DNA from: Ignavibacteria bacterium
GTDB taxonomy: Bacteria; Bacteroidota; Ignavibacteria; Kapaibacteriales; Kapaibacteriaceae
Assembly: GCA_015709655.1 (NCBI GenBank)
Contig: CP054181.1
Span: 15,327-79,326 of the forward strand
DNA: 64,000 nt
Direction: 5' to 3'
In this document: positions 2 to 38,850 of the stretch, one piece after another
Position numbering within the stretch: position 1 is the first letter of the stretch
How the letters are laid out: the number at the start of each line of letters is the position of its first letter
Notes under the pieces: model-generated
The model's input: the letters and a program-made list of their open reading frames with translations, nothing else
The model's database searches: none
What the model was told of the DNA's origin: nothing
Program-made: the position numbers and the translations under genes

Positions 2-1774
2 ACCACCGGCCGAGGCAAAATCATTGTCCGCGCAAAGGCAAATATCGAAGCCAACAAGCAGGGTAAGGAAAGCATCGTAATTACCGAACTTCCATACCAG
101 GTGAGCAAGGCTGGTCTTATCGAGAAAATTGCCGCTCTGGTACGAGCAAAATCGCTTGAAGACATTTCTGATATCAGAGATGAAAGTGACAGGGAAGGTA
201 TCCGTATTGTAATCGAACTTAAACGTGATGGCGTACCGATGGTTGTACTGAACAACCTATACAAGCATACACAAATGCAGGTCACGTTTGGTGCCATTAT
301 GCTTGCACTGGTCAACGGCAGACCACGGATCCTGACGATTAAGGAAATGATCACTGAGTTTATCAGTCATCGTAACGAAGTTGTTGTTAGACGAACTCAG
401 TTCGATCTTGAGGCAGCCGAAAAGCGTGCACATATTTTGGAGGGCTTCATTATTGCCCTCGATAATATTGATGCCGTAATTGCAACAATTAAAGCAAGTG
501 CAGATGTTCCCACAGCGTCGGCTGCTCTGCAAACCAAGTTCGAGCTGTCGGAGATTCAGGCAAAGGCCATTCTCGATATGAGGCTGCAACGCCTTACCGG
601 ACTGGAACGCGATAAAATTCAGGCAGAATATCGTGAACTTATCGAAACAATCGAACGTCTGCGCGCCATCCTTGCCAGTAAGGAGCTTCAGATGAGCATC
701 ATCGGCGAGGAACTAACACTACTTGCTGAAAAGCATGGTGATGAACGCCGAACGGCAGTCGTTCATGATGCCCGCGACTTTACTCTGGAAGACATGATCG
801 CCAATGAAGAGGTGATCGTATCTATTACCCATAACGGTTACATTAAACGTACACCGGTTACAACGTACAGGAGACAGAATAAGGGAGGACGTGGTGTAGC
901 CGGACAGGGTATGTATGACGATGACTACGTAGAACTGGTCTTCCGTGCTTCTACCCACCATTACCTAATGTTCTTTACCGATCGGGGACGTGTTTACCGA
1001 ATAAAAGTATATGATATTCCGGAGGGATCCAGAAATGCAAAAGGTCGGTCAATCGCCAATGTAATTCAAAAGCAAAGCGATGAAAAGGTCACCGCGTATT
1101 TACCGGTTACCGATATCGATCAGGAAAACGCCTACGTATTCTTTGCTACTAAAAATGGAACCGTGAAGAAGACAGCACTGAATGATTACGCCAATGTCCG
1201 CTCTACGGGAATCATCGCAATTAATCTTGCGGATGATGACAGGCTGGTTGGTGCACGACTAACCGATGGCCACATGAATATTCTTATTGGCGCCAGCCAC
1301 GGACTTGCCGTGCATTTTAACGAAACCGACGTGCGCCCAATGGGACGCGCTGCAGCAGGCGTTCGCGGCATTGACCTTCCCGAGGGTGCTGAAGTCATCT
1401 CACTCACTGCTGTACGTCATTCTGATGCTCAAGTAATTGTTGTAGGGGAAAGGGGCTATGGTAAGCGTACCAAGGTTGATGATTTCCGTAGAACAAAACG
1501 CGGAGCAAAGGGTGTGATTGCAATGAATATCACGGAGAAAACCGGTCCAATCTGTGCAATCCTTGAAGTAACTGATACCGAAGACCTTGTTGTAATGACG
1601 GTGAACGGTATCCTTATCCGCCAGCATGTAGAGGATATCAGGGTTATCGGCCGTAACACACAAGGAGTACGGCTTATCCGCCTTGAAGAAGGTGATAGCA
1701 TTGCCGCAATTACTACCGTTACCAGGGATTCTGAGGAAGAGGACGATACCGAAAGCGAAACACCCGTTTCATAA
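2..1774 (+). CDS. gyrA: DNA gyrase subunit A, C-terminal part (5' end lies upstream of the window)
   Basis: Frame is open from position 2 (TGRGKIIVRAKANIEANKQGKESIVITELPYQV...). It continues through the GyrA C-terminal beta-pinwheel repeats and an acidic tail, with the stop at 1772-1774. Confidence 0.9.
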   Translation, partial: TTGRGKIIVRAKANIEANKQGKESIVITELPYQVSKAGLIEKIAALVRAKSLEDISDIRDESDREGIRIVIELKRDGVPMVVLNNLYKHTQMQVTFGAIMLALVNGRPRILTIKEMITEFISHRNEVVVRRTQFDLEAAEKRAHILEGFIIALDNIDAVIATIKASADVPTASAALQTKFELSEIQAKAILDMRLQRLTGLERDKIQAEYRELIETIERLRAILASKELQMSIIGEELTLLAEKHGDERRTAVVHDARDFTLEDMIANEEVIVSITHNGYIKRTPVTTYRRQNKGGRGVAGQGMYDDDYVELVFRASTHHYLMFFTDRGRVYRIKVYDIPEGSRNAKGRSIANVIQKQSDEKVTAYLPVTDIDQENAYVFFATKNGTVKKTALNDYANVRSTGIIAINLADDDRLVGARLTDGHMNILIGASHGLAVHFNETDVRPMGRAAAGVRGIDLPEGAEVISLTAVRHSDAQVIVVGERGYGKRTKVDDFRRTKRGAKGVIAMNITEKTGPICAILEVTDTEDLVVMTVNGILIRQHVEDIRVIGRNTQGVRLIRLEEGDSIAAITTVTRDSEEEDDTESETPVS

Positions 1775-1775
1775 T

Positions 1776-3758
1776 ATGAACCGTCAGGCTGTTTATATTG
1801 TGCTTGCCTTGGCACTCCTTATGGTATGCCCCGTACAGGCAACAGTACAACAGTCTGATGAGCTTGTTCTTCTTGCTCCTTTTGTCCCCGTCTTGTTGCA
1901 TGCAGATAGTTCGGACAGCCACGACGTCAAAGACATTGATTCAGCACGACCGATGCCCAAAGGGTATGGGCGCATCGGGCGTTTGCCATTGGATATTGCC
2001 GATAGTATTTCCAAGACCGACCGGCTATCTGTACAGTATCAGACGCTAGGGGAACTCCTTATGCGTAGTACACCGTATCAGCCTTTGTCGCAAGGCGGGC
2101 TCGGACAGTTTGATGCGATCTCAGTACTTGGGAGTTTGCAAACAAATTTACTAACGTCATTGAACGGACGTCCGTATTCCTCTGCATGGAATAATAGTAT
2201 CAATTTAAGTGCAATTGCAGTAGAAGGACTTGAAACTGTTGAAATCCTTGTCGGCACGGCTGCCATTGGTCTTGCACCGGGTATCGGGCAGGCCGCAATG
2301 AACCTGCAGAAAGCACGGTACGATTCAAAAACGCCACATACGGCATTATGGTACAGCCAGGGTGGCGGTAATTTTATCGGTACCGATGTATTGTTTACAC
2401 AGAATATTGCAAAGGGCACGAACATCAATGTTGGAATTCGGCGCAATGGAGCTGAAGGAAGCTATCTTCAAACAGATTATGATGTGTGGAATGTACGCCT
2501 TGGATACAGGTATATGCCAGATTCGAATTCCGTTCTTGATTTCTCGTATGACCTCACTTCACACAACACCGATTTATGGGGCGGCATTGTAACGGGTACT
2601 CATAATCCATTGATATCAGAATTTGATACACCGGTTGTATTTGGTTCATTACGCGACCTGCAACGAAGGCATGATCTTCAACTTGGATTTATGACCTTAC
2701 TCACCCGCGACTCACTTCACACGATGACCGCACAATTGTACTATACTCATGACAACCTTATCCGCTTGCAGGACACCGTGTTGGCTCCAGACTCAGCGTC
2801 GGGTGTCTCAGAACCGGTCCTTTTTCAAGGCCGTCAGGCGGGTATGCTGCTTAGAACATCGCATCAGCTTGGAAACACATTGATTCGGGTTGGTGCCGTT
2901 ACCGAATATGTGCAAAACACTGGCAACCACATTGTAGATGCCGTCAGTGAAATTCAGCCGCAATTGTTCCTGCATTTGCATCACACCATAACCCCCCAGC
3001 TTAGCCTTCAGGCAGCGTCGCACCTGAAATATGCAATGAGTACAGCAGCCTATGGCGCCGGTGCCGGGTTGTTATGGAAAGGTTCAGTATCAAGGGTACT
3101 TGCAGACGTAAGCTATGTAACCACGCTTCCAACGCCGGCCGAGACACAGCTTGGTTTGAAACCTGAAAACGTTTTGTTGGCACTGGGTGAATATGCGTTT
3201 TCCGGAAAAAATTTTAAGGTTCGGGGAAGTTTGTTTTTTACATCAACCACCAACATGATTTCGAGCCATCTGGTGTATGACAGCCTTGGTCTGGCCGGTG
3301 ATATACGTGCTTCGAACAGGCAAGACGCTGCACGTATGGTGGGAACGATTCTGTCAGGCACCGTGAGACATGGCTTACTTGAAACACAGGCAACCGTTCG
3401 CACTCACACAGCCATAACAGGGAGTAACCTTCTGCCACCACTCTCAGGAGACGTTCAGGTTGCAGGGATCTATCAATTAGGGCGGAATACAATTACGGGC
3501 GGCATTCATATCTCTGCACTGATACCTGGCACGGTACTCCAGTTCGTTCCAATTCGATGGATGAGTGTTCAGCCGCCCGGTGATGATAAAAAAGCTGTGT
3601 ACAATGGGATTGATGCCTTTATCACCGCCTTTGTTGGTAATGCAGCAATTCGGCTCAGCTGGGAAAATATATTGGCTGAACGGTGGTATTCTACCTGGGT
3701 TACACCTTCGGTGCCAAGTAACTTCAGACTTAGCCTGACTTGGAATTTCCTGGATTAA
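1776..3758 (+). CDS. TonB-dependent receptor-like outer-membrane protein (signal peptide, plug-like N-domain, large beta-rich C-domain)
   Basis: Start at internal M32 of ORF 1683 (MNRQAVYIVLALALLMVCPVQA signal peptide). Plug-like segment LGELLMRSTPYQPLSQGGLGQFDAISVLG...AVEGLETVEILVGTAAIGLAPG. The ~500-aa beta-rich remainder ends in the strand FRLSLTWNFLD. Starting at 1776 puts it only 1 nt after the gyrA stop. Confidence 0.6.
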   Translation: MNRQAVYIVLALALLMVCPVQATVQQSDELVLLAPFVPVLLHADSSDSHDVKDIDSARPMPKGYGRIGRLPLDIADSISKTDRLSVQYQTLGELLMRSTPYQPLSQGGLGQFDAISVLGSLQTNLLTSLNGRPYSSAWNNSINLSAIAVEGLETVEILVGTAAIGLAPGIGQAAMNLQKARYDSKTPHTALWYSQGGGNFIGTDVLFTQNIAKGTNINVGIRRNGAEGSYLQTDYDVWNVRLGYRYMPDSNSVLDFSYDLTSHNTDLWGGIVTGTHNPLISEFDTPVVFGSLRDLQRRHDLQLGFMTLLTRDSLHTMTAQLYYTHDNLIRLQDTVLAPDSASGVSEPVLFQGRQAGMLLRTSHQLGNTLIRVGAVTEYVQNTGNHIVDAVSEIQPQLFLHLHHTITPQLSLQAASHLKYAMSTAAYGAGAGLLWKGSVSRVLADVSYVTTLPTPAETQLGLKPENVLLALGEYAFSGKNFKVRGSLFFTSTTNMISSHLVYDSLGLAGDIRASNRQDAARMVGTILSGTVRHGLLETQATVRTHTAITGSNLLPPLSGDVQVAGIYQLGRNTITGGIHISALIPGTVLQFVPIRWMSVQPPGDDKKAVYNGIDAFITAFVGNAAIRLSWENILAERWYSTWVTPSVPSNFRLSLTWNFLD

Positions 3759-24531: not shown

Positions 24532-25086
24532 ATGGCAGGCGGTGGTGAAGCGCTTGGAGGAGGCGCAAAACAAAAACGCGGGAAAGCCGGAAAAAGAAAG
24601 GCGCGAAAGCGTCTTGGTTTCAGAATGGATATGACGCCCCTGGTGGATATCACATTCCTGCTGCTAACATTTTTCATGCTGACAACATCCATGATTACAC
24701 CGCAAACCATGGAGATGTTTGTTCCGCCTGAAATCGATAAACCGGTAGAAGTACGTGAGTCTGAACTGTTTACGATTCGTATACGAAACGATGGCAAGAT
24801 TTTTTATAACATCGGGAAAGACGAACCAACAGCAGTTGTGAAAAAGGACGAATTACTGAAGGTGGTTGTTGATCAAAACGTGGCACTTAAAAATCGCTGC
24901 ATTGTAACCCTCAAAACGGCAGATAATGCTCCGTATGGTTTAGCAGTTGAAGTCTTGGACCTCCTCAACCAGGCAGAACCGCTGATCATCGACGGATTAC
25001 GTAGAGCCGGAATCAATGAACGAAAGCGAATTTTCACAGTTTCACCATTTACTGCGGACGATGCTAAGGAGGTAAATGGACTATGA
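24532..25086 (+). CDS. exbD: ExbD/TolR biopolymer transport protein (paralog 2)
   Basis: Same MDMTPLVDITFLLLTFFM signature after a Lys/Arg/Gly-rich N-terminal extension. Strong SD (AAGGAG) upstream of the ATG. Confidence 0.8.
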   Translation: MAGGGEALGGGAKQKRGKAGKRKARKRLGFRMDMTPLVDITFLLLTFFMLTTSMITPQTMEMFVPPEIDKPVEVRESELFTIRIRNDGKIFYNIGKDEPTAVVKKDELLKVVVDQNVALKNRCIVTLKTADNAPYGLAVEVLDLLNQAEPLIIDGLRRAGINERKRIFTVSPFTADDAKEVNGL

Positions 25087-25874
25087 CAACAGCAGTAGCA
25101 CAGACCCCTGCAACGCTTCCTGGCTTTGGCGCTTCAGCGTTTAAGGACCTGATACGGAAGAATACCCGAAAGGCATTTTATACAACACTTGTCATTCTGC
25201 TTCTATTTGGGATGTCGTCCTGTTCGTATCGTTACATCGAAAACTGGATGTTCCCTCCACCACAGGTGGTTAGAGTAAAGCTTGCCAAGGTAAGCCTGGA
25301 TATGTTGGCACCGCCGCCCTCTGAAAATCAGGATGTGCCGCCTCCACCACCACCTACCGTTGTTCCACCTGTTAGCGGCCCGGCCGTCAGAGCCGGAATG
25401 CCGGTGGCCGTACCCGACGCATTACTCCCTGAGGACCTAAAGGATTTTGCTACTGTTAAGGACATCAATGTGGCATCTGCCGTTGGCGGAGACGGATCGA
25501 ATTTCGGAGACTTTGCAAGTAATATCGGACATGATGTTGGCACCCTGAACATTCAAACCAAGGAAGAAGAGCCGAATGTTGAAGATTTTATTGCAGTAGA
25601 AAAGGAACCTGACTTTGATTATGCAGCCCTGCAGCGTAGAGTTAAATACCCTGAGCTTGCTCTAAAAAATGGTATCGAGGGTCAGGTGCTTGTTGCAGCA
25701 TTGGTTGGCAAGGATGGACGGGTTGAAAAAACCCAGATAATTGACTCAGAGAACGAAATACTTAATGCAAGTGCTGTGAATGCAGTAAAAGAAACCATTT
25801 TCACCCCGGCAGTAAATAACGGTGTTCCTGTCAGAGTGTGGGTACGTATTCCAATTGCATTTAAACTTCGGTAA
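25083..25874 (+). CDS. tonB: Energy transducer TonB (Pro-rich linker plus TonB C-terminal domain)
   Basis: N-terminal TM segment, proline-rich stretch PPPPPPTVVPPVSGP, and C-terminal TonB domain ALQRRVKYPELALKNGIEGQVLVAALVGKDGRV...VPVRVWVRIPIAF. Strong SD (AAGGAGG). Start overlaps the exbD stop. Confidence 0.85.
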   Translation: MTTAVAQTPATLPGFGASAFKDLIRKNTRKAFYTTLVILLLFGMSSCSYRYIENWMFPPPQVVRVKLAKVSLDMLAPPPSENQDVPPPPPPTVVPPVSGPAVRAGMPVAVPDALLPEDLKDFATVKDINVASAVGGDGSNFGDFASNIGHDVGTLNIQTKEEEPNVEDFIAVEKEPDFDYAALQRRVKYPELALKNGIEGQVLVAALVGKDGRVEKTQIIDSENEILNASAVNAVKETIFTPAVNNGVPVRVWVRIPIAFKLR

Positions 25875-25876
25875 TC

Positions 25877-26065
25877 GTGTTCTTTACGATACTCAATGTT
25901 GCCATACGCTCAGCAGTACTTCTTCTTGGTTTTGGCATACTCTTTACCGGATTGGGAGCAGGAATCTCATCACCAATCAGAGAGGTATTTGGTGCTCTGT
26001 GCATTCTGTTTGGCATATACCGACTTTTGATGTTTTACCAGGCTAAAAAAAAGTACCATCAATGA
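25877..26065 (+). CDS. Small two-TM membrane protein (hypothetical), GTG start
   Basis: 62-aa ORF with two hydrophobic helices and a KKKYHQ tail. It starts 2 nt after the tonB stop, and its TGA overlaps the ATG of the next gene (ATGA). That packing is typical of a real operon member. Confidence 0.4.
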   Translation: MFFTILNVAIRSAVLLLGFGILFTGLGAGISSPIREVFGALCILFGIYRLLMFYQAKKKYHQ

Positions 26066-26979
26066 ACATTGTCCTTCTCCTGTTTGTTTGTTGTGTTCTG
26101 GCTGCGTGTAACCCGGCCGAACAAACAAACCAGAACGCAGAAACGGCTATCTCTGGTCAGGCTGAGGTTTTGTGCGATGCTGAAGTTGTTAACCTGATAC
26201 AACCAGCACAACGACTTTTTGACAGCGTAACCCCCAAGGCAACAATAACACTGGTTCCAGTTCCTGCCAATGAAGCCGTATTGCAGCTTATGCAACACAA
26301 GGCACGTGCCATTGTGGTTGCCAGAGACTGGTTCCCTGAGGAACGACAGGAAGCAGAAGCAACCAAGGGTGATGATGGATACCCCCGTACGTTAATAGCA
26401 CGTGACGCCCTTGTTTTTTATGCAAACAAGGATTTTCCGTACGATACGATGCATGCAGATCATATTCGTGAATGGGTCCGAACGGGGAAGTTCCCACTTT
26501 CTTCCTATCCTCAACTGAAAAAGAAGCCTATTCTGATTGTTCCGGGTTCTGCGTCGTCGGTCTATGGCAATCTGCGCACTGTTGTTTTGAATGGCACAGA
26601 GCCCTGCACTGACTGCATTCATTCACTAGGCACCACTGATTCTGTTAAAGCCGGTGTTCATGGAAACGTTCATTACATCGGCGTTGGCTATTTATCCGGG
26701 CTGGTAAGAGATACCTCGGTTAAAATGTTACGGCTGAGCTGGACCGACTCTACCGGACAATATCAGTTTCCCCGGCTGGTTCATGCCGGTAATCTCGTAC
26801 AAGGATTGTATCCATTTCCCGTCCCCATATACGTTGTATTACGCGATCGTGCAAACCAGTACAGTCTGCCAAGCGGATTTGCACTCTATCTTGCACGTGA
26901 CGGTAAGGCTCAGCGCTCATTCTTTGATGCGGGGATTGAACCTGGGTTCGCCAAGATTGTTATTCACACTCCTGAATAG
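26062..26979 (+). CDS. PstS-family (PBP-like) periplasmic binding lipoprotein
   Basis: Lipoprotein signal MNIVLLLFVCCVLAAC. PstS-like segments IARDALVFYANKD...ILIVPGSASSVYGNL...VHYIGVGYLSG. Family assignment is by motif resemblance only. Confidence 0.5.
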   Translation: MNIVLLLFVCCVLAACNPAEQTNQNAETAISGQAEVLCDAEVVNLIQPAQRLFDSVTPKATITLVPVPANEAVLQLMQHKARAIVVARDWFPEERQEAEATKGDDGYPRTLIARDALVFYANKDFPYDTMHADHIREWVRTGKFPLSSYPQLKKKPILIVPGSASSVYGNLRTVVLNGTEPCTDCIHSLGTTDSVKAGVHGNVHYIGVGYLSGLVRDTSVKMLRLSWTDSTGQYQFPRLVHAGNLVQGLYPFPVPIYVVLRDRANQYSLPSGFALYLARDGKAQRSFFDAGIEPGFAKIVIHTPE

Positions 26980-26982
26980 AAC

Positions 26983-28707
26983 ATGATTCGATTAATTATT
27001 TGTGTTGCCGTTGTTTTAGCAACTTTACCATCCAACGGCAGGTCCGAAGATTATTTTGAAAAGGCAAAAGCTTCTGCCTCCGTATCAGACTACGTAGAAG
27101 CAGGGCGCCTAATCAGGCTTGCTGTAAGTGAGAAGCCTAAGGACGAAGAAGTACTCGAGTTAGCAACACGTATTTACACTGAACTTGAGATTCTTGATAC
27201 TGCAGTTCTGTACGGCCGACGTTTGTACGAACAGAATGCCTCGACTCCCTCTGCCGTTCGTACCTATGCTACTGCACTTATTCGCGCTGGTAATCCAACT
27301 GAAGCCGTACGGATCCTACGGAAAATCACACAGAAAAACGCAGATGTTGAGACGTCGCTCTCCCTTGTGGAAGCCCTCGTGGAAGCCGATAGTATCCAGG
27401 CTGCTGAACTGGTAGCCACAACAGCAAAGAAGAATTACCCCAAGAGTCCTGATGCCTACCTGGCCGTAGGGTTGTTATACATGAAGTACAAACCTCAGCC
27501 AGTGTATGAACTGGCTAAGGACAATCTTGAAAAAACCATCGAGTTGGAGGAAAACAATCTTGATGCCCACTTCGCCTTGGCTCAGGTTTACTGGAGGATG
27601 GCCAACCGTGAATCTGATCAGGACCTAAGCAATGAACTGTTTAAGCGGTGTCTGCTGGAGTGGAATAAGGTAGGGCAACTCGACCCTCGTAATGCACGTG
27701 CCTGGTTTGAACAAGGAAAAATCCTATACCTGGCAAAGAAGTTCCGTGAATCAGTTGGAGCGCTCCAGCGGTATAAGGAGCTGCGACCAGGCAAAACTGG
27801 GAACTCTATTACAAACTGGTACCTTGGTGACGCTTTCTTTGAGCTCCATCTCTTTGATTCGGCAACGGTCTATTTAAACCAGGTTATTGAGTCAATTGAT
27901 ACACTCAAACCCAATGCTTACATGATGTTAGGTAAGTGTGGTGTCTATTCCAAAGACTGGTCTGCTGCCGTGAACTCGTATAACCAGGCGGTTACAGCCG
28001 GGCGTTCCCTTAACCAATGGGAACCTACCGACCTGTGGTACTTTGGTACCGCCCTTGTCATGGCCGGCGATACGTCAAAAGCAATTTCCGTCATGACTGA
28101 AGCTTCTCAAAAGGAGCCTGGTAACTGCAGCTTTATGTTCAGGTTTGGTTTGCTGCTGTCGGGCAAAAACATGAGAGAACATTCAAATCAAATCTTTCGA
28201 CAGCGTTTACTGAACTGCTCGGATTCACTTGACGCAAAGGTGTATCTGTTCCTTGGTAATAACTTTTATGCTGACAGCGTTCTTGACAGCGCACGGGTTT
28301 ACTACGAAAAGTCGGTAAACCTTGATCCGGCTCCCTACACGCTGAACAGGCTTGCAGAAACATTCACGGCACTGGCAGATGAACAACAGGCCAGAACCAT
28401 TTATGAACGTGTGATTACTGCCGGTGCAGCTCCGGGTGCCTCAACTGCAGACAAACAAGGAGCAGTTCAGGCGATATTGAGGCTTAACGGATTTGATTTA
28501 ACTGCAAAGAATTTTGATGCTATTATCACGCGGAGCAAGGCAGGCCTTGAAATTGACGGCAAAAATCAGTGGTTGAACCTCTACCTTGCCATCGGCTATC
28601 AGGGTAGCGGCGACACTAATGCTGCCTGCAAATGGTATAAGGAAGTTCTGAAAATTGATTCCAACAACGATACAGCCAGGAAAAATCTGAAAGCCCTTGG
28701 CTGCTAA
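26983..28707 (+). CDS. Tetratricopeptide-repeat (TPR) protein, secreted
   Basis: Signal peptide followed by multiple A/Y/L-patterned TPR-like helical repeats. 574 aa. Starts 4 nt after the PstS-like stop. Confidence 0.65.
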   Translation: MIRLIICVAVVLATLPSNGRSEDYFEKAKASASVSDYVEAGRLIRLAVSEKPKDEEVLELATRIYTELEILDTAVLYGRRLYEQNASTPSAVRTYATALIRAGNPTEAVRILRKITQKNADVETSLSLVEALVEADSIQAAELVATTAKKNYPKSPDAYLAVGLLYMKYKPQPVYELAKDNLEKTIELEENNLDAHFALAQVYWRMANRESDQDLSNELFKRCLLEWNKVGQLDPRNARAWFEQGKILYLAKKFRESVGALQRYKELRPGKTGNSITNWYLGDAFFELHLFDSATVYLNQVIESIDTLKPNAYMMLGKCGVYSKDWSAAVNSYNQAVTAGRSLNQWEPTDLWYFGTALVMAGDTSKAISVMTEASQKEPGNCSFMFRFGLLLSGKNMREHSNQIFRQRLLNCSDSLDAKVYLFLGNNFYADSVLDSARVYYEKSVNLDPAPYTLNRLAETFTALADEQQARTIYERVITAGAAPGASTADKQGAVQAILRLNGFDLTAKNFDAIITRSKAGLEIDGKNQWLNLYLAIGYQGSGDTNAACKWYKEVLKIDSNNDTARKNLKALGC

Positions 28708-35736: not shown

Positions 35737-38700
35737 ATGTATATACTCGGTACCCGACCTCTGCTCCGCACGATTTCTGTGATCCTGCTTTTACTGACTA
35801 CAACATCCGGGAGTGCACAGTTCTCCGGTGAACTGGCCTTTGGCAAGAATAAAGTTCAATATGAACGGTTCCGCTGGAAATATATCCAGTCGGACAATTT
35901 TGACGTATACTTTCATGAAAACGGTGATTATACAGCCAGATTCACAGCAATGATGGCCGAACAAGCCCTACGTAAAATCCAGCATGAACTATCGTTTTCA
36001 ATCACTAAGCGAATTGCTTTTATTGTGTACGGATCACATAATCAGTTCGAACAAACAAATGTCATTGACGAATTTATGTCCGAGGGTATCGGTGGCGTAA
36101 CCGAGCTCTTCAAAAACAGAATTGTAATCCCGTTCGAGGGAGACTACGCGAAATTTGCTCACGTGATTCACCACGAGCTTGTTCATGCTGTTATTAACGA
36201 CATGTTCTACGGTGGGTCTGTGCAGTCCCTTGTAAGTAATAACCCAAGAGCCATGCTGCCTTTATGGATGAATGAAGGCTTTGCGGAATACAGTAGCGTT
36301 GGTGGCCTTGATGTAAAAACCGATCAGTTCATGCGCGATGTTGCTGTTAGCGAATATCTAAAAGGGCTCCAACAATTAAACGGATACTTTGCCTACCGCG
36401 GTGGACAAGCATTTTGGAGTTACGTAGCTCAGAAATACGGCCCTGAAAAAGTTGGTGAGGTATTAAACCGCTTCCGCACTCTTGGAGATGTAAACCAGAC
36501 CTTTGTTGCGGCATTTGGATTAAATTTCGAAGACATGTCAGACCAGTGGGCCAAGGATACCAAGAAGTTTTATTTCCCGGATGTTGACCGCTACGAATAC
36601 GTTGAAGACTGGGCTACACGGTTAACAAATCATCAAAAGGAAGAGAATTTTTACAATACCTCTCCCGCCATATCACCCGATGGCGAGCAGGTTGCGTTTA
36701 TCAGTGATCGTTCAGATGGTGTTTTTGGTTTGTATGTAATGAACCTTGCTACCAAGGATGTTAAAAAACTGGTCAGTAGTAACCGAACTACCGACTTTGA
36801 AGAACTGAATTTTCTGACACCAGGAATTTCCTGGAACCCGGAAGGCACAAAACTGGCCGTGGGAGCAAAAGCCGGCGGGCAAGATGCAATTTACATTTTT
36901 GATACTAAGACTAACACCTATACTACACTCTCTCTTGGATTCAACACCATTGGCGGTGTTCACTGGTCACCAGACGGACAATATCTGGCGTTCGACGCAA
37001 CATTTAAGAACGTGCAAAACGATATTTTTCTGTACACTCTTGCTACAGGTGACGTTCGGCAGCTTACCAACGATATTTTTACCGACACGGAACCAGTCTG
37101 GTCTCCAGATGGTAAGAGAGTTTATTTTTTATCGGACAGAGGCAGTCGACTCTCCGGTACCGAAACCTCAGAAAACTTTAAAATGTGGGACTACGATGTT
37201 GCACAAAAAGACATTTACTCTATCTCTGTAAATGGCGATTCATTACAGCGTATTACCACCGACCCCACAGTAGGTAAGTACTCACTTGCCGTTGCCCCTG
37301 ATAACGCGTCGCTCCTTTATACCGCCGACTACAATGGTATCACAAACCTGTGGGAAATAAACCTTACCACTGGTGAACGAAGGGCACGCTCCAACTCACT
37401 TCAGGAAGTAAGTCAAATATCGCTCAGTAGTGATGGGACAAAACTTCTTTTTTCATCACAGAACCGTGTTGGTTATGATTTGTTCCTGGTCACCTTTCCA
37501 TTTGATTTACCACAGCATGATACATTACCCTTAACAAAGTACAGGAGTCTGCAGCTTGAAGAAAAGAACTCCTTGGCAGCAATTATGGATCACCAGGCGG
37601 ATACAACCAACACGGCCGAATTTGCCTACGGTACGTTCGACGTTGACTTTGGCACCGGAAATACCGTTCAACCCAACACACGTGTTATCCAGCCTTTGCC
37701 AGCTGACTCTAGTGTTCAGGATAGCACAGTGGATTTTACCGCTAAGGATTACAAGGTGGCTTTCTCTCCGGACATCATAACCGGTGCTGCAGGTTACAGT
37801 AACTGGTTCGGCGCACAGGGAGTAGCGCAGATGTTGTTTTCTGATATGCTGGGTGACCACGAACTCTACGTAATGCTTAACCTGTTTTTGGATTTAGAGA
37901 ACAGTAACTTCTACGTTCAGTATAACTATAAACCGTTAGTAGTTGACTACAGCCTCGCAGTATTCCATAATGCGGGGTACTCGTACGTTGCAAATGCATC
38001 GTATCTATATCTGAACAGGTTTAGAACCTACGGCATGTATTCATCGATGTCGGTTCCCTTCAGTAGATACAGCCGCATCGATTTTGGTTTACAAGTCCAG
38101 GCAATGAGCCGTGAAAACATTGATGATCCGCGAATGCCCGGCTTAACCCGATTTGTTACGGTACCCTCGGTATCCTACGTTGTTGACGATGCAATTTGGG
38201 GGTTCTGGGCCCCGATAAAAGGTACGCGTTTTAATGTTACTCTGGAGGGGTCACCACAGATTGGAACAACCGGTTTATCGTTTGGGACCCTAAGAACCGA
38301 TGCACGGCAGTATATGCATCTTGGGGGGATGTACACCCTTGCATTGCGCGGAAGCGGGGGATACAGCTTAGGACGTGATCCACAGAAGTTTTTTATTGGT
38401 GGTGTTGACAATTGGTTCAACCGGTTTTTTAGCAGTGCCGGCTGGCCCTTTCAAAATCCCGAGGATTTTGCTTTTACCAGACCAGGTTGGCCATTGCGTG
38501 GGTATGCCCTGAACGAACGAAATGGTTCGCAGTATTTTGTGGCCAATGCCGAGCTTCGGTTTCCACTGTTCTTTGCATTTCAGGCAGGCCCCTTACCATC
38601 ACTTCTTCAGGGATTGCAAGGTCAGATTTTTTTTGATGCAGGTGGTGCATGGGACAATAATGGTATCCCTGGAGTTAGTGTCGACAATATTCGAATAGCA

Positions 38701-38850
38701 GCACCTGACCCAATACTGTATAGCACAGGATTTGGTATTAGAAGCCTTGCACTTGGATTACCATTACGCTTTGACGTGGCTTGGCGCCATGAGCCCACAG
38801 GTGGAATGTCAAGTCCGTATTATTTATTCTCCCTTGGTGGAGATTTTTGA
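35737..38850 (+). CDS. Secreted tri-modular protein: gluzincin-like HEXXH...E peptidase-MA-type module, TolB/PD40-like beta-propeller repeats, and a C-terminal Omp85/surface-antigen-type beta-barrel
   Basis: Signal peptide (LLLLTTTSGSAQ). HEXXH+E motif VIHHELVHAV...(18 aa)...WMNEGFAEY. Repeated TolB-like blades (SPDGEQVAFISDRSDG, SPDGQYLAFDA, SPDGKRVYFLSDRGS, SSDGTKLLFSS). The C-terminal ~300 aa carry an Omp85-like terminal pattern (IGGVDNWF, RPGWPLRGYALNE...ELRFPL) and end in ...LGGDF. Confidence 0.55.
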   Translation: MYILGTRPLLRTISVILLLLTTTSGSAQFSGELAFGKNKVQYERFRWKYIQSDNFDVYFHENGDYTARFTAMMAEQALRKIQHELSFSITKRIAFIVYGSHNQFEQTNVIDEFMSEGIGGVTELFKNRIVIPFEGDYAKFAHVIHHELVHAVINDMFYGGSVQSLVSNNPRAMLPLWMNEGFAEYSSVGGLDVKTDQFMRDVAVSEYLKGLQQLNGYFAYRGGQAFWSYVAQKYGPEKVGEVLNRFRTLGDVNQTFVAAFGLNFEDMSDQWAKDTKKFYFPDVDRYEYVEDWATRLTNHQKEENFYNTSPAISPDGEQVAFISDRSDGVFGLYVMNLATKDVKKLVSSNRTTDFEELNFLTPGISWNPEGTKLAVGAKAGGQDAIYIFDTKTNTYTTLSLGFNTIGGVHWSPDGQYLAFDATFKNVQNDIFLYTLATGDVRQLTNDIFTDTEPVWSPDGKRVYFLSDRGSRLSGTETSENFKMWDYDVAQKDIYSISVNGDSLQRITTDPTVGKYSLAVAPDNASLLYTADYNGITNLWEINLTTGERRARSNSLQEVSQISLSSDGTKLLFSSQNRVGYDLFLVTFPFDLPQHDTLPLTKYRSLQLEEKNSLAAIMDHQADTTNTAEFAYGTFDVDFGTGNTVQPNTRVIQPLPADSSVQDSTVDFTAKDYKVAFSPDIITGAAGYSNWFGAQGVAQMLFSDMLGDHELYVMLNLFLDLENSNFYVQYNYKPLVVDYSLAVFHNAGYSYVANASYLYLNRFRTYGMYSSMSVPFSRYSRIDFGLQVQAMSRENIDDPRMPGLTRFVTVPSVSYVVDDAIWGFWAPIKGTRFNVTLEGSPQIGTTGLSFGTLRTDARQYMHLGGMYTLALRGSGGYSLGRDPQKFFIGGVDNWFNRFFSSAGWPFQNPEDFAFTRPGWPLRGYALNERNGSQYFVANAELRFPLFFAFQAGPLPSLLQGLQGQIFFDAGGAWDNNGIPGVSVDNIRIAAPDPILYSTGFGIRSLALGLPLRFDVAWRHEPTGGMSSPYYLFSLGGDF

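Follow-up and report, generated by a model that had tools for sequence, protein, structure and literature searches.

The Omp85/TpsB superfamily of outer-membrane proteins has been divided into ten bacterial subfamilies, one of which is the 'WD40-like' or 'WD40-Omp85' subfamily (Heinz and Lithgow 2014, Front Microbiol 5:370, PMC4104836). The domain profiles given for this subfamily consist of PF01103 together with one to five copies of PF07676 (Table S2, PMC4104836), and a list of approximately 100 members records for each of them Phyre2 matches to a BamA/TamA barrel, to TolB and to a "best aminopeptidase hit", the latter being tricorn factor F3, aminopeptidase A, ERAP1 or the collagenases 4AR1 and 4AR9 (identifiers 1Z5H, 4KXD, 3QNF, 4AR1 and 4AR9; Table S3, PMC4104836). 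Listed members come from Ignavibacterium, Melioribacter, Rhodothermus, Salinibacter, Chloroherpeton, Cytophaga, Anaeromyxobacter, Geobacter, Vibrio and Gemmatimonas, frequently as several copies in one genome, and members from lineages outside the Fibrobacteres-Chlorobi-Bacteroidetes (FCB) group are also included (PMC4104836). The main text of that study covers the propeller only, and the peptidase-like domain appears only in the supplementary table (PMC4104836); the class has since been summarized as having "divergent WD40 and peptidase domains" (2024, PMC11358297), and the subfamily as having "not been well characterized" (Hanson et al. 2024, PMC11116518). Here we analyze a gene encoding a protein of 1037 amino acids (aa) from an Ignavibacteria bacterium, located in a 64,000-nucleotide stretch of contig CP054181.1 (positions 15,327 to 79,326, forward strand) that we refer to in its entirety as the window, and we find that this protein almost certainly belongs to the WD40-like subfamily, an assignment based on shared architecture and lineage.

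The gene is one uninterrupted open reading frame (ORF), exactly as described in the initial annotation of this DNA, which had proposed a single secreted polypeptide that attaches a putative hydrolase to an Omp85 scaffold. Profile searches, an AlphaFold2 model and residue conservation all support the core of this proposal: the one polypeptide is predicted to contain an intact gluzincin fold, a six-bladed TolB-like propeller, a variable tether, and a 16-strand Omp85 barrel without polypeptide transport-associated (POTRA) domains. By analogy with studied proteins of similar build, we propose that it is an outer-membrane-anchored, probably active zinc peptidase that carries a propeller on a flexible tether and most likely faces the periplasm, a reading to which we assign a probability of roughly 0.6. 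The features on which it draws are located in the window as follows:

35737..38850, + strand: complete peptidase–propeller–Omp85 ORF (1037 aa plus stop codon, ATG start; taken from the ORF list)
35737..35817, + strand: putative Sec signal peptide (aa 1 to approximately 27, cleavage near SGSA/QF; by sequence inspection)
35839..36621, + strand: gluzincin (clan MA) metallopeptidase-like domain (aa 35-295), starting with the motif FGxNKVxY
36172..36186, + strand: HELVH zinc-binding/catalytic motif (aa 146-150; H146, E147 and H150)
36265..36291, + strand: WMNEGFAEY glutamate helix (aa 177-185), with E180 as the presumed third zinc ligand and with G181 and E184 invariant
36634..37506, + strand: six-bladed TolB-type (PD40) beta-propeller (aa 300-590)
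37522..37731, + strand: variable tether (aa 596-665), made up of a helix (601-623) and a disordered linker (624-661)
37732..38847, + strand: Omp85-type 16-strand beta-barrel (aa 666-1037)
38494..38505, + strand: loop-6 lid-lock motif LRGY (aa 920-923)
38629..38643, + strand: strand-13 lid-lock motif FxDxG (FFDAG, aa 965-969)
38818..38847, + strand: last strand with the C-terminal beta-signal (...YYLFSLGGDF), whose final residue is aromatic

The AlphaFold2 model, built from 115 homologues, has a mean predicted local distance difference test (pLDDT) score of 86.1 and a predicted template modeling (pTM) score of 0.84, and the three modules are identified far beyond chance, with profile E-values of 1e-11 to 1e-23 and confident structural matches. 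Residue conservation was assessed in an alignment of 124 sequences, i.e., the window protein and 123 full-length relatives that are 28-45% identical to it, and all three modules with their key residues are present in 117 of these 124, demonstrating that no module is peculiar to this copy of the gene and arguing against the domains being separate gene products in related genomes. The protein matches the published description of the WD40-like subfamily in having a PF01103 barrel, PD40 repeats for which TolB is the closest structure, and an aminopeptidase/collagenase-like N-terminal region; it shares with the subfamily the same three-part build, the lack of POTRA domains and the same lineages (Ignavibacteria, Chlorobiota/Bacteroidota and Rhodothermota), and we see no essential difference. 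The window copy, which comes from an uncultured Kapaibacterium-like lineage in the Bacteroidota/Chlorobiota group, is not part of the 2014 set. The earlier statement that the protein could not be matched to a characterized one is therefore correct in that no member has been characterized experimentally, but the architecture itself had already been named as a subfamily (PMC4104836).

The N-terminal module is, on sequence and model, predicted to be a bona fide gluzincin fold that is closer to peptidase families M9 and M30 than to M1. A full-length Pfam scan matched Peptidase_MA_2 at aa 74-273 (57.7 bits, cutoff 32.4), and the model of aa 47-295 is an alpha/beta domain with a five-strand sheet, in which the HELVH motif lies on one helix (137-158) and E180 and E184 lie on another (176-188); this gives the arrangement by which gluzincins are recognized, with HExxH on the active-site helix and a glutamate on a downstream helix of a thermolysin-like fold. 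The initial annotation had named both motifs correctly and had read the distance between them as the 18-residue spacing of M1-type enzymes, and it is this second part that does not stand. The hallmarks of M1 peptidases are the HExxH-X18-E spacing and the GxMEN exopeptidase motif. In the window protein 29 residues lie between H150 and E180, and the corresponding spacing in the 124-sequence alignment is mostly 28-29 and never 18; Peptidase_M1 (PF01433) reaches only 12.1-13.8 bits against a cutoff of 27.7; and the edge-strand motif is GGVTE where an M1 enzyme would have GxMEN. Together, these three observations rule out an M1-type assignment.

Instead, a sequence profile made from 26 diverse N-terminal domains of the family found M9 collagenases as its best match in the PDB (E = 1.3e-3), with M1 enzymes appearing only at E of approximately 1. 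The collagenase alignment spans the HExxH motif, W-x-EG-x-AEY and a Y-x-x-G motif, with WMNEGFAEY aligned to W-W-S-EG-V/I-AEY, and the nearest solved folds are likewise those of M9 collagenase and M30 (hyicolysin/lugdulysin), with M1 aminopeptidases ranking after them, at a sequence identity of only 12-14% to the window domain for M9, M30 and M1 enzymes. Motif and spacing agree with M9, where the glutamate follows HExxH at a distance of roughly 28 residues within EGxAE(F/Y), and M9 is the top PDB match by both profile and fold; PF01752 matches only 9 of the 26 family members (best E 1.1e-5) and is not listed among the matches of the window protein, which also lacks the activator and accessory domains of M9 collagenases and which Pfam places in Peptidase_MA_2 rather than in Peptidase_M9 or M1.

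The HELVH motif is invariant in the 115 close homologues. In the divergent alignment H146 is kept in 122 of 124 sequences, E147 in 121, H150 in 120 and E180 in 121, and all four residues are kept together in 119, bearing out the expectation that the HExxH and glutamate residues would be conserved; G181 and E184 are each present in all 124, and Y220 in 120. The peptidase domain is also the densest part of the protein in positions conserved at 90% or more (10.4%). Because of this conservation of HExxH...E, G181, E184 and Y220, the high density of conserved positions and the collagenase alignment, we consider it likely that the window protein is a catalytically competent zinc peptidase. Five relatives (P0149, P0177, P0179, P0204 and P0250) have lost the HExxH motif and/or the glutamate ligand (e.g., HGLAK, HRLVL and RELVR) while keeping the propeller and barrel, and appear to be pseudo-peptidases within the family. 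A further feature of this domain is the strongly conserved FGxNKVxY motif (FGKNKVQY, aa 35-42, window 35839-35862), located almost at the mature N-terminus, upstream of the part that the Pfam peptidase model covers. Conservation reaches 90% or more at F35, G36 and N38, and a diverse 26-sequence set shows no variation at G, N and Y; the motif may provide the zincin sheet with its first strand, or may serve as a docking peptide.

Export of the protein is suggested by the N-terminus, MYILGTRPLLRT-ISVILLLLTTT-SGSA/QF (the slash marking the putative cleavage site), which, judged by eye, shows the n-, h- and c-regions expected for a Sec signal peptide, in agreement with the initial annotation, and which on inspection contains no lipobox Cys. 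This region is modeled at low confidence (pLDDT < 50 for aa 1-31) and is not conserved in homologues, with no position reaching 90%.

The middle module matches PD40 (PF07676) at 81.6 bits against a cutoff of 20.9 in the full-length Pfam scan, and contains SPDG repeats at aa 313, 411 and 456 and an APDN variant at aa 520, consistent with the at least four PD40/TolB-like repeats noted before. The model has about 22 strands in this region, and a Foldseek search of the PDB matched it to TolB (E = 1.4e-13), with the propellers of tricorn protease and of S9 peptidases (prolyl oligopeptidase/DPP-IV) also among the fold matches; the window protein resembles these enzymes in having a propeller beside a peptidase domain. 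Only 3.1% of propeller positions are conserved at 90% or more. The TolB match, taken with the match of the C-terminal part to BamA described below, raises the question of whether the protein is simply the TolB of the Tol-Pal system, or the BamA, of this organism, as source annotations such as 'biopolymer transporter Tol', 'Tol biopolymer transport system component' and, for C-terminal fragments, 'BamA' would have it, and as the top matches of the two parts, by sequence and by fold, would also allow. A full-length NCBIfam scan gave only sub-threshold TolB-type propeller matches, with the TolB equivalog model TIGR02800 reaching 121.4 bits against a cutoff of 343.15 and matching at propeller positions only. 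TolB is a soluble protein of approximately 430 aa with its own N-terminal alpha/beta domain and no barrel, whereas the window protein lacks this domain, has its propeller covalently joined to a barrel and a peptidase, and shows nothing that suggests binding to Pal or TolA. Similarly, the BamA model TIGR03303 reaches 35.6 bits against a cutoff of 297.15, with only its barrel positions 402-738 matched, and the POTRA domains of BamA are absent. Curated cutoffs and missing defining domains thus refute both identities, and we regard the chance that either is correct as negligible.

The C-terminal module is an Omp85-type barrel, as the initial annotation had proposed from its terminal strands and final phenylalanine (the protein ends in ...SLGGDF). 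When aa 601-1037 or aa 701-1037 were scanned alone, PF01103 was matched at 44.0 and 45.2 bits (cutoff 24) over profile positions 36-306 of 325, whereas the full-length Pfam scan of the window protein did not report PF01103; of the Pfam matches that had been anticipated, Peptidase_MA_2 and PD40 were thus found in the full-length scan, and the barrel only with the C-terminus by itself. The absence of PF01103 from the full-length scan is a search artefact, and it probably accounts for PF01103 being present in the precomputed annotations of only a minority of homologues. The same effect is probably why the family has been named after its propeller or its peptidase part.

In the AlphaFold2 model the barrel has 16 strands, 11 of them before a long loop 6 with LRGY and 5 after it, which is the pattern of BamA (as read from the DSSP secondary-structure string rather than from coordinates), and Foldseek matched it to many BamA chains in the PDB, with TM-scores of 0.60-0.64 when normalized to the barrel-only chains 6qgw, 7nre and 9co2. 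The lid-lock motifs of Omp85 proteins have been defined as (L/M)RG(W/Y) for loop 6 and as FxDxG for strand 13 (PMC11358297). A wider form of the loop-6 motif is (L/M/V/I)RG(F/Y/W). The loop-6 and strand-13 motifs are both strongly conserved in the family, with R921 kept in 123 of 124 sequences and G922 in 121 for loop 6, and F965 in 121, D967 in 121 and G969 in 111 for strand 13; the C-terminal residue is aromatic in 114 of the 123 full-length homologues (F in 101, Y in 9 and W in 4), and 8.9% of barrel positions are conserved at 90% or more. The window protein therefore shows the PF01103 match, the 16 strands and the lid-lock motifs of the Omp85 superfamily and lacks its POTRA domains, an absence that is usual in the WD40-like, Metallo and noNterm subfamilies (PMC4104836). 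Put differently, it resembles BamA and TamA in its 16-strand barrel, loop-6 RG(Y/F), strand-13 FxDxG and C-terminal aromatic residue, and differs from BamA in carrying enzyme and propeller domains in place of POTRA domains.

The retention of the lid-lock motifs of functional Omp85 proteins is one of three observations that favor a non-proteolytic alternative, in which the protein would be a scaffold for assembly or quality control, the 'BamA-BamB fusion' suggested by Heinz and Lithgow, with an insertase barrel that has a lateral gate and with a propeller and peptidase-like domain that only bind substrates or partners. The others are the missing catalytic residues in 5 of 124 relatives and, in one clade, the position of the gene after an AsmA-like/DUF748 gene, which recalls TamB-TamA. 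We consider this alternative improbable, as the strong purifying selection on HExxH...E, G181, E184 and Y220 in approximately 96% of relatives is hard to explain without catalysis, and as the protein lacks the POTRA domains that serve BamA and TamA as the module for binding substrates and partners. In addition, its propeller is of the six-bladed TolB-like and not the eight-bladed BamB type, and in the clade concerned, the only one with this arrangement, a gene for RNase R separates the AsmA-like gene from the gene under study. An active, membrane-anchored peptidase remains the reading that we prefer.

How such a peptidase would be held relative to the barrel depends on the segment between propeller and barrel. 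In the model this segment contains only a helix and a disordered linker (pLDDT < 50 for aa 624-661), and no match to POTRA (PF07244) was found in aa 560-700 even at E <= 10. None of its positions is conserved at 90% or more, gaps make up 50-60%, and its length in homologues varies from 16 to 223 aa. Because the linker has no conserved position and such a variable length, and because there is no POTRA, we favor a view in which the barrel is mainly an anchor and the segment a tether; lacking both conservation and a fixed length, it resembles a flexible leash more than an element that threads a pore.

A pore-threading element is what would be needed if the protein were instead a self-exporting surface protease of a type V-like kind, whose barrel moves the peptidase-propeller unit to the cell surface with the helix and linker (aa 601-661) threading the pore, like FhaC H1 or the linker helix of an autotransporter, for the extracellular digestion of proteins for nutrition or for surface remodeling. 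The 23-residue helix and 38-residue disordered linker before strand 1 do superficially resemble FhaC H1 and its linker, and M9 collagenases and M30 enzymes, the nearest solved peptidases, are extracellular. However, a dedicated pore plug would not be expected to vary as this segment does, a folded zincin-plus-propeller unit of approximately 560 residues would need to cross a barrel with loop 6 in its lumen, and TolB-type propellers are classically periplasmic. Exactly such an export of an enzyme by an Omp85 protein was proposed in the original type Vd model for PlpD (discussed in PMC11116518), but that model has been overturned, the enzyme domain of PlpD having been shown experimentally to be periplasmic and not secreted (PMC11116518). 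We therefore judge surface export to be unlikely, and return to the tethered periplasmic peptidase as the preferred arrangement.

PlpD, the only enzyme-Omp85 fusion studied experimentally, appears to be the best working analogy for this arrangement, since it too has an enzyme domain N-terminal to a 16-strand Omp85 barrel. The two differ in that PlpD is a patatin lipase with one POTRA that forms homodimers, whereas the window protein has a zinc peptidase and a propeller, no POTRA and a long unconserved tether. Because all studied N-terminal domains of Omp85 proteins, including that of PlpD, are periplasmic, the peptidase-propeller unit is probably oriented toward the periplasm. From established knowledge of the individual parts we infer that the window protein would be exported by Sec, that the machinery for beta-barrel assembly (BAM) would insert its barrel into the outer membrane by means of the C-terminal beta-signal, and that the peptidase would be zinc dependent; it may act on peptides or unfolded envelope proteins in the periplasm. 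Hanging from the membrane-anchored barrel on the flexible tether, the peptidase would be accompanied by a propeller that may bind substrates or limit access to the active site, a substrate-selecting role suggested by tricorn protease and the S9 peptidases.

Several observations count against this proposal or limit its support. The loss of the HExxH motif or the glutamate in 5 of 124 relatives suggests that at least some members of the family act without catalysis, and the retention of all BamA-like lid-lock motifs means that the barrel could do more than anchor. Gene neighborhood, which is conserved only among close relatives, gives no functional support. Furthermore, our literature searches found no experimental work on any WD40/PD40-Omp85 protein, only mentions of them as uncharacterized, and a search for publications on PF13485 likewise turned up none that addresses what any of its members does.

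A more elaborate version of the proposal is suggested by BepA, an HExxH protease of the periplasm that works together with the BAM machinery and offers a functional analogy for quality control of the envelope. The protein could be a self-contained system for outer-membrane quality control, i.e., a BAM-like receptor and a BepA-like protease fused in one chain, in which the seam between barrel strands 1 and 16 captures stalled, misfolded or beta-signal-bearing outer-membrane proteins and the propeller-gated peptidase degrades them. A related possibility, confined to one clade, is that proteins of the window type could be the outer-membrane partner of the neighboring AsmA-like protein. No result directly supports either idea, and we hold the first to be a long shot.

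Relatives of the window protein are numerous. A word-indexed search listed 120 near-full-length relatives of 876-1086 aa with 46-98% identity, from Kapaibacterium, Ignavibacteria and Bacteroidota metagenome-assembled genomes (MAGs), among them a 98%-identical protein (P0001) that is present on 6 metagenome contigs. Relatives occur in at least 569 species-representative genomes (GTDB representatives), and a HMMER search of 1.84 billion representatives identified 1,590 cluster representatives (50% identity) at E <= 1e-30, with 123 of the best 150 matches being at least 900 aa long. Many of the MAG records that contain close relatives (L004, L006, L024, L026, L031, L080 and others) are labeled, for example, Hyphomicrobiales, Bradyrhizobiaceae, Chitinophaga pinensis, Chloroflexota or Armatimonadota; these labels look unreliable, as gene content and synteny match Kapaibacterium/Ignavibacteria contigs.

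Examination of the surrounding genes confirmed that the gene lies directly after the fab/rnc genes and converges on yigZ, and that this context gives no functional hint, both as the initial annotation had stated. The order plsX-fabH-fabD-fabG-acpP-fabF-rnc precedes it, with rnc 32 bp upstream, and a convergent yigZ-like (Impact_N) gene overlaps its 3' end by 27 bp (window 38824-38850). A weak hairpin followed by a T-run is present at 38828-38843, within this overlap, and a scan for promoters and terminators around the gene found no signal exceeding the shuffled expectation, with terminator-like sites no commoner than in shuffled sequence. Among 80 related loci, fabG-fabF-rnc upstream and yigZ-GT4 downstream are retained only in relatives with at least approximately 56% identity and are lost below approximately 50%, so this arrangement is lineage synteny and not a clue to an operon, and clustering of the neighbors across these loci found no partner common to the whole family.

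One other gene order recurs, AsmA-like/DUF748 gene, RNase R gene and peptidase–propeller–Omp85 gene, in 10-11 loci of a single clade (at L061:807-5486 and L068:5719-7899, both + strand, and at equivalent positions in L065-L068, L074-L076, L079, L082 and L083). The AsmA-like/DUF748/YhdP-like proteins of this clade are 1350-1560 aa long, and they fall to 29% identity although the gene order is kept; the peptidase–propeller–Omp85 proteins of the clade are 56-96% identical. An AsmA-like gene near an Omp85 barrel recalls TamB-TamA, but with RNase R intervening, and the arrangement is absent from the clade of the window protein itself. Given its restriction to one clade, we did not adopt this gene order as functional evidence.

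The remaining large ORFs of the window belong to housekeeping genes (uvrA, ftsK, carB and similar), and none of them is a paralogue of the gene under study, a BamA or an AsmA-like gene. A 691-aa ORF (window 1683-3758, + strand) has a marginal match to Porin_10, a Pfam putative porin family (27.9 bits, cutoff 27), and may be an unrelated outer-membrane protein. Upstream of the fatty-acid synthesis genes, at approximately 25000-28707 (+ strand; L001:1-2970), are a TonB_C-domain gene, a PBP_like_2 gene and a gene for a 574-aa protein with multiple TPR repeats; these genes are envelope-associated and syntenic in contigs encoding 98%-identical proteins, and no link between them and the peptidase–propeller–Omp85 gene was established.

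The architecture described here is neither unique to this gene nor a new kind of system, having been catalogued since 2014, and the window gene does not add a new principle; it does provide a clean, confidently modeled example of a peptidase–propeller–Omp85 subfamily that is widespread (hundreds of species across the Bacteroidota/Chlorobiota group), strongly conserved and functionally uncharacterized. Three cautions apply to future work with this subfamily: routine full-length Pfam scans miss the Omp85 barrel, 'Tol biopolymer transporter' and 'BamA', as used in databases, are misleading names for its members, and the catalytic domain is M9/M30-like rather than M1-like. To our knowledge, all Omp85 proteins of known function assemble or translocate proteins, with PlpD as the sole studied exception, and PlpD illustrates how the barrel can be repurposed to keep an enzyme at the outer membrane's inner face. 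The family is a worthwhile target for experiment, and identifying the substrate of this subfamily would add a new function to a central family of outer-membrane proteins.

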